IMG/VR virus record: IMGVR_UViG_3300033145_002563
Coordinates: 276 to 64,275 of that record
From: a virus
Direction: 5' to 3' (one strand)
Length of the DNA: 64,000 bases
The translations under genes were made by a program, and so were the position numbers. Position 1 is the stretch's first letter, and each line of letters starts with the position of its first letter. Below, one piece after another: positions 961 to 45,960 of this stretch. The notes under the pieces are model-generated. The model did no database searches. It was not told the origin of the DNA and saw nothing but the letters and a program-made list of their open reading frames with translations.

Positions 961-2253
961 TCAACTTCCTTTCTTCGCTTGAATACAACCTTTTCTACTC
1001 AACTCATAATATATCAACATCGACCACAACCGCTCTGAATGATCTCTTTTACTTTGCATATGTTCAGTAATAACTCGTTTTACTAACTTCTTCTCACTAT
1101 CATCATAGAATAAACTTCTCAACTCATCATTCTCTCTGAACCACTTTCCAATCGGAACTGCGAATCCTTTCTTCTTTCCACTAACAATCTTTCTATATTC
1201 AGAGAGATAGTTATCTATAACTGTCTTTAGTAAGTACTTCCTTCTCAGCCCCCATCTACATTTGTAACTAATAGGCAACGAGGCACACCAATTCATTATC
1301 TTTGTAGACATGAATGGAGAACAAATAGAGGAAGAATCAATTCCGGCCATTCGACAAGCAGTCTCAACTTTTTGTTGTTCTCTACCAAATAATTCAGTAC
1401 CAATATCAAACAACATTAACTTATCCAGATAGTTAATGCCAGACAATGAAGATACCTCTTCAAATCTTCTATCAAACAAATCAAAGGCAAACAAATCAAA
1501 GGCAATTTCCTCACCATCGAGTAAGGACGGAAACAAATGAAAAACATCTAAGAAATCCCAAACACAAACAGTACCTTCATATCCAGAAAGGAAGTATCGA
1601 TTTATCTTCGATAATCGTTCGTTTTTACTCCACCTCGGCAACTGAATAGGGGATAGCAGATCTATCATTCTACCAAAATAGTTCGCAAATAGATATCTGT
1701 CGTACCCACAAAACAACTCGTCCCCACCATCACCAGTTAATATTGAATTTCCATACTCTTTTGCTTTCTTAACTGCATAGTAAGTAGGAACCAAAGAACT
1801 ACTATAGAACCAACTTGCATATGTTTCTTCATTTATTTTATCTAAAACTTCTTTAACATGCTCTGGAGTAACAACTGTAGTATGCCATTTGTTTAAACAA
1901 CCTAACTCTTGACATATTTCCGCAGATAGTCTACTTTCATCATATTTAATATCATTCAAGGTATAACCAACACTCACAATTTCTATATTCTTATCTTCAA
2001 ATACTCGTCTTGCCATTAACAAAAGAAAAGTTGAATCAATCCCACTACTATGCAAAACAACAACAGAGGGCTTCATTTTAGATATTTTTAAACAAACCTT
2101 TTCTTGTAGTTCCTTTTTAGCTTCTTCTATAGAAATATCAATCTTATTGCAAAAAGATTTCTTAAGAGTGTTCCAATCATCTTCAGACAGTTGATTAGAA
2201 CAATAACCTAAGTAAAATACTTCAATTATCTGTTGTATTGTAAGACTAATCAT
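961..2253 (-). CDS. Asparagine synthetase-like amidotransferase, synthetase domain only
   Basis: HSSGIDST PP-loop, TGDGGDELFCGY, KKKGFAVPIGKW, ERLWSML; no N-terminal Cys-type glutaminase domain. Confidence 0.8.
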   Translation of the reverse strand: MISLTIQQIIEVFYLGYCSNQLSEDDWNTLKKSFCNKIDISIEEAKKELQEKVCLKISKMKPSVVVLHSSGIDSTFLLLMARRVFEDKNIEIVSVGYTLNDIKYDESRLSAEICQELGCLNKWHTTVVTPEHVKEVLDKINEETYASWFYSSSLVPTYYAVKKAKEYGNSILTGDGGDELFCGYDRYLFANYFGRMIDLLSPIQLPRWSKNERLSKINRYFLSGYEGTVCVWDFLDVFHLFPSLLDGEEIAFDLFAFDLFDRRFEEVSSLSGINYLDKLMLFDIGTELFGREQQKVETACRMAGIDSSSICSPFMSTKIMNWCASLPISYKCRWGLRRKYLLKTVIDNYLSEYRKIVSGKKKGFAVPIGKWFRENDELRSLFYDDSEKKLVKRVITEHMQSKRDHSERLWSMLIYYELSRKGCIQAKKGS

Positions 2254-2540
2254 ACATTTATCTTTCTCAAAGGACGAGAATCTTGTCCAACCATTCTCTC
2301 CAATCCTAGAGAAGGCTCTTCCACTTTAAGAGGATGAGATTCCTCAATAAGAGGATCCAAATCCTCAAAATCCCTCGTTGGAGGGAGGAAACCATGTTCC
2401 ACTTGAGAGATTCTAACAGAAATCGGAACCATTGGAGATTCTAGAAAATTCCATTCTAGTTCCAGAAAACTCCGTCCTGCTGCTCTATCAGAAATAAGTG
2501 TACTATAGAAATCTCCAGCTGTTGTATTACTATATAGCAT
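2250..2540 (-). CDS. Hypothetical protein ending in RPLRKINV
   Basis: ORF track; ATGA overlap with the downstream gene. Confidence 0.6.
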   Translation of the reverse strand: MLYSNTTAGDFYSTLISDRAAGRSFLELEWNFLESPMVPISVRISQVEHGFLPPTRDFEDLDPLIEESHPLKVEEPSLGLERMVGQDSRPLRKINV

Positions 2541-45500: not shown

Positions 45501-45960
45501 CCCCCATAAGCCATATGAATTTAGGATTCAATTCTCTGATAGCTTTATCTATCCTAGGTTTACAACATTTCATCTCTCTTCTTGTAGGTTTGCGATTATC
45601 CGGGGTTCTACAGTTCACTGCATTTAGTTTCCAAAAGTCTCTATCTAGATCCAAATCAAAGAGTTTTAACTTCTTACGAAACAACTGACCCGCATCTCCT
45701 ATTAACTGTACTCCTTTCTCATCTTCCTTCTTGCCAGGAGCCTCAGCAATGATAAGAACTCCTTTCTCACCACCACCTGTGTAGTTCATCTTCGGGGAGT
45801 TGCAACCCTTATATAGACCACAGATCTCACAGGATTTATCTTGTTCAATCTGAGCAAATTCCTTGATCAGACTAATTTGTTTCTGTGGAAAAAATCCCTT
45901 CCTTGCCTTAAAAGACCCATCTAGTTCCACATTAATTTTTCTGAGAGGTCTTTGTTTCAT
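42541..45960 (-). CDS. polA: Family A DNA polymerase with N-terminal UDG-like domain, 3'-5' exonuclease and intein
   Basis: AEAPGKKED..GDAG (UDG); FDYETSG and QNLKFED (exo); SPNLQNIP, DY|SGIE, AKNGFVFPEFYG, NTPFQGTA, QIHDS. Confidence 0.95.
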   Translation of the reverse strand: MKQRPLRKINVELDGSFKARKGFFPQKQISLIKEFAQIEQDKSCEICGLYKGCNSPKMNYTGGGEKGVLIIAEAPGKKEDEKGVQLIGDAGQLFRKKLKLFDLDLDRDFWKLNAVNCRTPDNRKPTRREMKCCKPRIDKAIRELNPKFIWLMGGAAVESFYMDRFSGLGITRWRGRCIPDRDTGAWIVPMFHSSFLLRSGEDENLDSVFTRDLKRAVSYLSREPFSFEDETKQVRVLTSFEDVEKLLQEILSRKDLVTFDYETSGLKPYRPGHKIWTIGLTSDKLYPASFSFPYQYPHWSPQEFRRLKRLWRRVLRECSLVAQNLKFEDMWSRMIVGQILVNWVWDTMVSSHVLDDRSGVTGLKFQAYVRWGALAYDEAVKLFIKVKPGKDFNTLDSVPLDELCLYNGLDALFTYRLYLEQKEELQKKRGLLKAYELFHEGLLTFSDIQAAGVGINENHFEQEHKDLTIEIDTLEKELEESKESKLFRRKYDISLKLGSSDHLRKLFFTVLGLKPQKLTTSKKNVSVDHDVLVGIGSSFTRKLLRLRKLLKVRDTYLAQIRKEVVNGRIHPFFDLHTARSFRSSSSSPNLQNIPVRDEEARRAVRKGIIPSPGNKLIEWDYCLAEGTSVEVVGGCRNIEDIVEECDSEDIYVYCYDQKEKRIGMSKVIRGGLTGRNVIVWKAILDNGKEILATPDHQFMLRNGEYRKLRNLVAGDSLMPLYKKVEGTGNDSPNYVRVYLNNGTSILEHNLVALDIFGVTIAGSKLVVHHKDGNGINNRLSNLEVMDRSEYMSIHTKQSWVQPKKKRTFSWHKSKEYSRKLSESKKEYWRKWREKKRQDTLNHEIVSVQFYGYRDVYNIEVEDCHNFALEAGIIVKNSGIEVCIACCYTKDPVLVAYINDPASDMHRDLATELFGLTNNQVTKDLRFYAKNGFVFPEFYGSYYEACAASLWETCAGLETTDGVKIREHLRSVGITGKRRNSYSEFESHVKDVETAFWEKFGVFKEWQEAMIDFYHRRGYVELFHGHRRGGFLRKNEIINTPFQGTAFHCLLWSLNRLNALRKFEQWRTKIVGQIHDSGLYDQFPSEQQHVVDTTHRVACKEIREYHDWLIVPLSISFEVTPIDGSWYDKEDLQYEPTVAS
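43333..44097 (-). mobile_element. Intein (255 aa) with HNH endonuclease in PolA motif A
   Basis: Starts CLAEGT, TPDH block B, VHHKDGNGINNRLSNL, ends GIIVKN, +1 residue Ser. Confidence 0.92.

Follow-up and report, generated by a model that had tools for sequence, protein, structure and literature searches.

What a short peptide is doing at the ends of several otherwise unrelated proteins is the question raised by the virus record IMGVR_UViG_3300033145_002563, a single 68,611-base contig with 38% G+C and nearly all genes on the minus strand, of which we analysed a stretch of 64 kb (the window, whose numbering is used throughout). CheckV puts the completeness of the contig at ~32%; the phage is perhaps much larger, and the gene absences given below are valid for the contig only. 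An earlier note on this DNA had placed the peptide at four sites, and all four were confirmed on the minus strand, with codons as quoted there. It forms the C-terminus of open reading frame (ORF) 96 (2250-2540; SRPLRKINV, with RPLRKINV at 2253-2276), of a p97/Cdc48-like AAA+ ATPase (4678-6132; EELLRKINV, with the ELLRKINV codons at 4681-4704) and of ORF118 (6160-6516; VRPLRKINI, with RPLRKINI at 6163-6186), and it lies within the N-terminus, MKQRPLRKINVE, of a UDG-PolA fusion with an HNH intein (42541-45960; tag at 45928-45951). Across all six frames of the whole contig the core LRKIN was found four times, each time in a coding frame and each time at a protein end, and the back-translated LRKIN(V/I) pattern gave four matches where 100 shuffles led us to expect 0.03.

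Compared in pairs, the tag copies have 6-9 base differences in 24 and 0-1 amino-acid change. Random placement of the base differences gave as few amino-acid changes with P=0.005, in 0 of 50,000 trials and with P=4e-5 for the three pairs compared. The switches between copies include CGT/AGA for Arg and TTG/CTT/CTC/CTA for Leu. A looser search added a fifth C-terminal copy, ERPERKIDV (RPERKIDV at 28244-28267), on ORF72 (28241-28459, minus strand), which is a candidate and the least certain of the tagged ORFs; counting it, four to five copies keep the peptide across differences at 6-11 of the 24 bases. ORF96, ORF118 and ORF72 have codon scores of 0.19, 0.175 and 0.205, respectively, in the tagged frame, compared with 0.207±0.068 for sure genes and -0.29 for wrong frames, this gene-like codon usage being limited to that frame. 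The tag sites are not embedded in any longer DNA repeat: BLAST of the 600-nt flanks returned only 14-30-nt matches between them. A larger DNA repeat or a miniature inverted-repeat transposable element (MITE) as the origin of the tag was therefore rejected, given similarity over 14-30 nt only, synonymous differences and unrelated flanks. A scan of IMG/VR with the back-translated RP-type tag gave six internal matches, as would be expected by chance.

These comparisons also bear on whether the conserved element could be DNA or RNA, such as a promoter, a ribosome-binding element or the end of a mobile element, that is translated incidentally. Every copy does lie just upstream of another coding start, and the ORF96 and AAA copies have 14 identical bases. 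However, the copies vary at synonymous positions alone, with CGT/AGA and TTG/CTN switches among them, the spacing to the next start ranges from -4 to +31 nt, and the flanking sequence does not recur from site to site. In addition, a scan of 2000-7000 for promoter-like and terminator-like sites gave none that overlaps any of the three tags in that stretch (the PolA and ORF72 sites lie outside it). Furthermore, across the sets of related ATPases and DUF3150 proteins described below the invariant Arg of the motif is written with all six Arg codons (five of them in DUF3150), which implies selection at the level of the peptide. The DNA or RNA reading is thus already contradicted and has a negligible probability. 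Since copies differ at so many bases with hardly any amino-acid change, the terminal peptide is a selected short linear motif and not a DNA repeat, and the proposal of the earlier note that selection acts on the peptide is borne out by both the synonymous differences and the codons used across the family.

The ATPase, which belongs to Pfam AAA, gave an AlphaFold model with a mean confidence (pLDDT) of 87.6, falling to ~46-53 over the last 15 residues, which indicates that its tail is disordered. Foldseek matched the model over its full length to p97/Cdc48/Rix7/NVL (E about 1e-19). Walker A and B, sensor-1 and Arg residues are invariant in the C-terminal half, an active D2. As read from the sequence, an SKFQGE stretch occupies the pore-loop position of the ATPase, and the N-terminal half, a degenerate D1-like domain, has no Walker A motif. 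The protein is 100% identical to entry P0001 and 40-57% identical to its tailed homologues, and no relative above 57% identity was found among 5.8 billion proteins; some homologues carry the JGI label of the Vps4/SpoVK/Ycf46 group. Close relatives of the contig were likewise absent from GenBank phages (megablast), with a single match in genome_contigs, to a phage-like contig from a metagenome-assembled genome. A look-up of sequencing runs gave none, nor any holder of RNA.

A search for related ATPases retained 552 proteins among 8,000 candidates scored. We defined the module tail by Arg at -4, a hydrophobic side chain at -2 and a small hydrophobic one in last place, with basic neighbours, at or within a few residues of the protein end. 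In 86 of 119 AAA homologues the core motif is no more than four residues from the C-terminus, the remainder being mostly close variants, and typical ends are KRKIDV, RRKLDA and KRQLDI, with RKTRKINV seen once. Of 67 aligned tails, 64 have Arg at -4 and 65 have Asp at -1; Ile, Leu, Val or Met stands at -2, and 27 end in Ala or Thr. When 25 IMG/VR loci around tailed ATPases were fetched, nearly all contained a second tailed protein of ~289 residues, downstream of DUF2997 and DUF1257 and ending in LKRKLD(I/V), which proved to be DUF3150 (PF11348). The DUF3150 proteins of 16-17 module loci end in (K/T)R(K/R)(L/I)D(I/V/L), and the tail Arg and Asp are invariant in their alignment, where only 14 columns are. 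Across eight module genomes and the contig, the exact five-residue core occurs at the C-terminus 14 times in 887 genes compared with 0.2 expected, an enrichment of about 70-fold, and these occurrences are almost confined to the AAA ATPase, DUF3150 and the extra ORFs of the window. As for its fold, DUF3150 is predicted to combine a small sheet with helical bundles of a generic four-helix type, and a structure search with it gave no informative match and none to ESCRT-III.

The five copies in the window all show these features at -4, at -2 and in last place, but differ from most of the family at -1, where four of the five have Asn and only ORF72 has Asp. Asn at this position occurs in only two of the 67 AAA tails elsewhere (P0057 and P0082); other members have Lys, Arg, Gln or Glu there, and the position varies across subfamilies. 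A search of 1.84 billion cluster representatives with the DUF3150 profile, which returned 5,236, places the window tails more closely: [KR]-x-hydrophobic-[DEN]-x ends 57 of 137 full-length representatives, and at least 12 of 128 belong to a second class, RP/AP/LP-x-basic-basic-hydrophobic-x-hydrophobic. Both RPLRKIN(V/I) and RPERKIDV fit this second class, which is found in distant DUF3150 proteins with ends such as DRPTRKIKL, RPKRKIRIL and ERPKRRIVLD. As judged from these alignments, the window peptide is the local form of a family-wide terminal tail that marks an uncharacterised AAA+ module of phages and plasmids. The earlier note had tied the tag to a Ycf46-like AAA module, and this association extends family-wide, to the ATPase and its operon partner DUF3150. 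Our literature search found no paper on the module, on its function or on the tail motif.

The four genes of the module, for the AAA ATPase, DUF2997, DUF1257 and DUF3150, are also present together on plasmid CP114559 of Candidatus Manganitrophus, so the module is not confined to phages. Here Arg stands in place of Asp in the ATPase (QRRLRGG...), in DUF3150 (RPKRKIRIL...) and in a protein of 847 residues (KRKIRLS...). The plasmid locus lies at 122763-135614 of CP114559.1 (199 kb), with JAB-domain and Fic proteins adjoining. In one phage locus (L043) a trailing Ala after the tail is common to different proteins, and overall the ATPase and DUF3150 tails resemble each other more when they come from one genome than when the pairs are shuffled (4.30 vs 3.90±0.17, P=0.015). 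Such replicon-specific tail variants, shared between proteins, point to a receptor that co-evolves with the element and would thus be encoded by it. Distant cultured relatives of the ATPase (28-30% identity) are found in Mycobacterium phage Corndog and Rhizobium phage RHph_I4, with tail-like ends on Corndog gp96 (...KVRVLDL) and gp95 (...YALDFEEVV) and on the RHph_I4 ATPase (...GMSLDS), and the RHph_I4 module is located just upstream of a DnaB-like helicase.

Two further members of the module are encoded next to the window ATPase, both on the minus strand. The DUF2997 partner (4448-4666; Pfam PF11211) ends in GWCG, and an alignment of 22 members showed this type of end to be invariant in the family: the DUF2997 proteins of phage modules (the window, L001, L022-L043 and L085) all finish with [W/Y/H/F]-C-G-COOH, usually after GLPSG. 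This end is a second conserved terminal peptide of the module, and is absent in the plasmid and Rhizobium-phage versions. Lys47 of DUF2997 is lost in the window and the plasmid and kept in L085, which is anecdotal. The DUF1257-like partner (2806-3180) belongs to phrog_20456 and has no Pfam match; jackhmmer placed it together with proteins annotated as DUF1257 in RHph_I4 and on plasmid CP114559. Between these two partners a gene for an IS605-type TnpB (3315-4415; Pfam OrfB_IS605 and Cas12f1-like_TNB) runs on the plus strand, and is an insertion that stands outside the tag system.

DUF3150 was not found in the contig, two profiles giving no match in any of its six frames, although at ~32% completeness the gene may lie off-contig. 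The slot that DUF3150 usually occupies is taken by ORF96, whose stop codon overlaps the start of AsnB (ATGA), and ORF118 is directly upstream of the AAA gene, so that the two flank the AAA module. Neither ORF96 nor ORF118 has a recognisable family or structural look-alike, and both are orphans with low pLDDT. An acidic linker comes before the tail in all three small ORFs (ORF96, ORF118 and ORF72). ORF72 also contains a 15-nt tandem repeat (2.1 copies, 28364-28395) in its N-terminal half, encoding the reiterated AFTRLSRAL; it starts where an ORF of 208 residues, which has a weak TniB-like match, stops, and another TnpB gene (29158-30186) adjoins.

The remaining exact copy is carried by the polymerase, on an N-terminal extension of ~20 residues (MKQRPLRKINVELDGSFKAR). 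UDG-PolA homologues start with M-K-GFF..., and in the window protein the tag extension precedes this conserved KGFF, with no alternative in-frame start at the homologous position. The (K/R/Q)GFF motif directly follows the start codon in the PolA homologues of the related loci L002-L015 and corresponds to residues 21-24 of the window PolA (45889-45900); it looks like the polymerase's own clamp-binding motif. The gene lies between those for the phage DnaN and the clamp loader, and the order PolA, clamp loader, ORF168 and gp32 is conserved in all of L002-L015. A two-codon mini-ORF, ATG AAA TGA (45961-45975), overlaps the PolA start codon, with a Shine-Dalgarno-like AAGG just upstream. A possible sixth carrier is a DnaB-like helicase with a LAGLIDADG intein (48959-51754, minus strand), whose N-terminus MVRLRRRTVDV (51722-51745) may be a variant of the tag, and is given here as a lead only. 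RRR(T/K/V)V(D/E) is common to its closest homologues, one of which comes from a module phage whose ATPase ends in KRKIDT; two helicase relatives have neither tailed proteins nor the module within ±10 kb.

Could the copies outside the ATPase be leftovers, that is, C-terminal fragments of DUF3150-type genes scattered by rearrangements or mobile elements, with the PolA copy being the fused-on end of an ORF that lay upstream, and all of them now without function? Several features of the window fit such a history: there is no DUF3150 body in the contig and ORF96 occupies its slot, the RP-type tail of the window is of a DUF3150 tail class, the small tagged ORFs are orphans, TnpB and MITE elements are many (one ~200 nt upstream of PolA), and the GAA codon that follows the tag in PolA is a single base from a stop codon. 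Yet four to five copies have kept the peptide through the base differences given above while their flanks are dissimilar, and they sit exactly at the ends of ORFs with gene-like codon usage, whereas remnants free of selection would erode and lose their exact alignment with stop or start codons. We therefore regard this origin as quite improbable.

From the distribution of the motif we infer docking, a receptor and a consequence for the tagged proteins: probably, the terminal peptide is a docking or recognition handle, read by a single receptor that is common to its carriers and linked to the AAA+ machine. The tail itself is disordered, with the consensus K-R-K-(L/I)-D-(I/V)-COOH: the Arg at -4 is invariant, -2 is hydrophobic, -1 is Asp or Asn and the last residue is small and hydrophobic. 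All tail-bearing proteins would dock to one common site that co-evolves within each replicon. The site would most likely be on the AAA+ machine, either on the D1-like N-terminal ring or on the small partners DUF1257 and DUF2997, and the unfoldase would act as anchor for the tagged proteins or receive them as substrates. In this contig, where no DUF3150 was found, three orphan ORFs carry the tail instead, and the N-terminal tag on PolA, and perhaps on the helicase, would bring replisome proteins under control of the module. A more extended version, which we put forward tentatively, is that phages and plasmids may carry a self-contained system of tag-directed remodelling, in which the p97-like unfoldase with DUF1257 and DUF2997 chooses its clients by a portable terminal peptide; DUF3150 would be the usual client or adaptor, and grafting of the tag would here have re-targeted the system to the phage's own polymerase and helicase.

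Several results weigh against a docking handle. The tail is not docked in cis in the AlphaFold model, and for the three small ORFs, all of them orphans, the structure prediction is poor. The earlier note had looked to enrichment at termini and conservation in orthologues; the motif does show terminal enrichment and AAA orthologues keep it, but PolA orthologues, which have no tag extension, do not. The other eight whole genomes gave only one extra tagged protein, so that the spread of the tag to further proteins is almost peculiar to this contig. The link to the replisome comes from the one PolA N-terminus, whose homologues are untagged, together with the looser helicase motif. At a completeness of ~32%, the contig may also simply not extend to a DUF3150 gene. 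Finally, Arg at residue 11 of the ATPase (YLRAG motif) is lost in all three ATPases with Asn tails, and raw counts of residue 11 against tail type were 68/2 vs 25/25. This covariation, though strong in the raw counts, was rejected, since it was not significant on phylogenetically independent pairs, there being too few independent changes.

The position of the tag on a polymerase raises the sliding clamp as an alternative receptor, either the phage DnaN (46412-47539, minus strand; all three domains of Pfam DNA_pol3_beta) or the host beta clamp. Bacterial clamp motifs of the type QL[SD]LF, and PIP boxes, usually stand at the termini of polymerases and other replisome proteins, and the window tag resembles them in being a terminal peptide common to a polymerase and other proteins. 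DnaN, PolA and the clamp loader are moreover encoded in a row with the tag at the PolA N-terminus, and x-L-D-(I/L/F) is loosely like QL(S/D)LF, as in the RVLDL end of Corndog gp96. Against this, the tag does not conform to the clamp consensus, as it lacks the Gln at position 1, has a single final hydrophobic residue and no aromatic/hydrophobic pair, and ends in Ala or Thr in 27 of the 67 aligned family tails; in PolA the (K/R/Q)GFF motif, kept after the window tag, is a better candidate for clamp binding. Furthermore, all of 20 module phages examined carry tails, but none gave a DnaN match over the Pfam cut-off and 17 gave no match at all, which makes phage DnaN unlikely as a general receptor, although the host clamp might serve as partner in its place. 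A clamp-binding role for the tag accordingly seems highly unlikely.

A second candidate receptor is a stand-alone ORF with a ClpX-type C4 zinc ribbon (53744-54022, minus strand; Pfam zf-C4_ClpX), which encodes 92 residues downstream of primase and contains CLFC...CSQC. Its Pfam match is below threshold (22.6 bits, cut-off 27 bits), its best PDB sequence matches are the ClpX N-domains 2DS7 and 1OVX (E 0.04-0.07), and no homologue of it was found. The N-domain of ClpX binds the SspB tail peptide RGGRPALRVVK, and likewise binds UmuD, MuA and lambda O via terminal signals, the ClpX C-motif 2 being R/H-x-K/R-K-hydrophobic (PMC3983244). The tag could then be a tether or degron similar to the SspB ClpX-binding (XB) tail, read by such a domain in host ClpX or in the phage ORF, and would deliver tagged proteins to ClpXP or shield them from it. 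Like the tag, known ClpX signals (SspB XB, MuA C-motif 2, lambda O and UmuD) are short peptides of basic and hydrophobic residues that stand at the N- or the C-terminus of proteins unrelated to one another, a good many of which are replication proteins of mobile elements (PMC3983244). They are read by an AAA+ unfoldase, which for the module is the proposal and for ClpX is known, and RPLRKINV and RPALRVVK have in common RP, LR and a hydrophobic residue three positions after Leu. This resemblance amounts to five of eight residues, though, and the family consensus KRKLD(I/V) has Asp (at -1) where XB has Lys and is without the upstream Leu. Nor does the window ATPase, which is p97-like and itself tagged, have a zinc ribbon, and replicon-specific tail variants better fit a self-encoded receptor than a conserved host ClpX. 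With weak matches to a ClpX-type zinc ribbon in only two of 14 other module phages and no homologue for the window ORF, the phage zinc ribbon was rejected as a general receptor, and we consider the ClpX-type reading as a whole unlikely.

A terminal peptide common to unrelated proteins and preceded by an acidic flexible linker would also be in keeping with a signal for localisation or packaging, much as the internal proteins of T4 have a capsid-targeting sequence and encapsulins have cargo-loading peptides. The constant carriers of the tail are nevertheless the ATPase and DUF3150, which sit among replication genes and occur on a plasmid as well, and no structural gene is linked to them and no protease site or capsid association was seen, which leaves this signal with a very slim probability.

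Returning to docking on the AAA+ machine, comparable arrangements exist in other AAA+ systems. Proteasomal activators carry short C-terminal tails, HbYX in PAN, Rpt and Cdc48, and GQYL in both the AAA+ Mpa and the non-ATPase Bpa/PafE. The module resembles them in having a disordered, conserved C-terminal tail on an AAA+ unfoldase and on an unrelated helical non-ATPase of the same system, and a tail common to an unfoldase and its non-ATPase partner implies one common docking site. In contrast to these tails, that of the module is basic-Arg-x-hydrophobic-Asp-hydrophobic, with no Tyr and a penultimate Asp or Asn, and here it is also found at an N-terminus; neither a 20S nor another peptidase gene was seen in the module, and no peptidase family turned up in the Pfam scan of 46 window ORFs, which included no search aimed at peptidases. 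The C-terminal tail of p97/Cdc48 recruits cofactors with PUB or PUL domains, and the window ATPase likewise combines a p97 double-ring fold with a conserved unstructured C-terminal peptide, but the two peptides have no sequence likeness, the window D1 is degenerate and the same tail is present on other proteins too. In Vps4, an MIT domain pairs with the MIM tails of ESCRT-III. The module has an ATPase of the Vps4/SpoVK/Ycf46 group and a helical partner whose C-terminal tail would similarly be read by the ATPase; unlike Vps4, its ATPase has no MIT domain, and the likeness of DUF3150 to ESCRT-III stops at a generic four-helix bundle.

Among the other elements of the window, a family of 123-127-nt repeats (92-96% identical) is represented at 46162-46288, 27448-27574, 47885-48007, 32288-32350 and 4385-4447. 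The copy between DnaN and PolA is ~200 nt upstream of the latter, with the tag outside it, and a partial copy adjoins the 3' end of the TnpB gene at 3315-4415. An ORF of 59 residues (61363-61542, minus strand) starts with MLGRVFRHTPRKLIDI, a loose match to the N-terminal motif with one extra residue that may be due to chance.

The module is widespread, with members from uncultured phages, from distant relatives that have been cultured and from a plasmid, and a tail that is common to two of its proteins and has been copied onto a DNA polymerase is the first concrete handle on how it chooses its partners. If tag-directed choice of clients is true, the client tag would be a degron or tether code, encoded by mobile elements, that controls the assembly or turnover of the replisome. 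As a client code for a phage unfoldase, it would also offer a clue to the function of the related Ycf46 and Ycf35 proteins of cyanobacteria and plastids.

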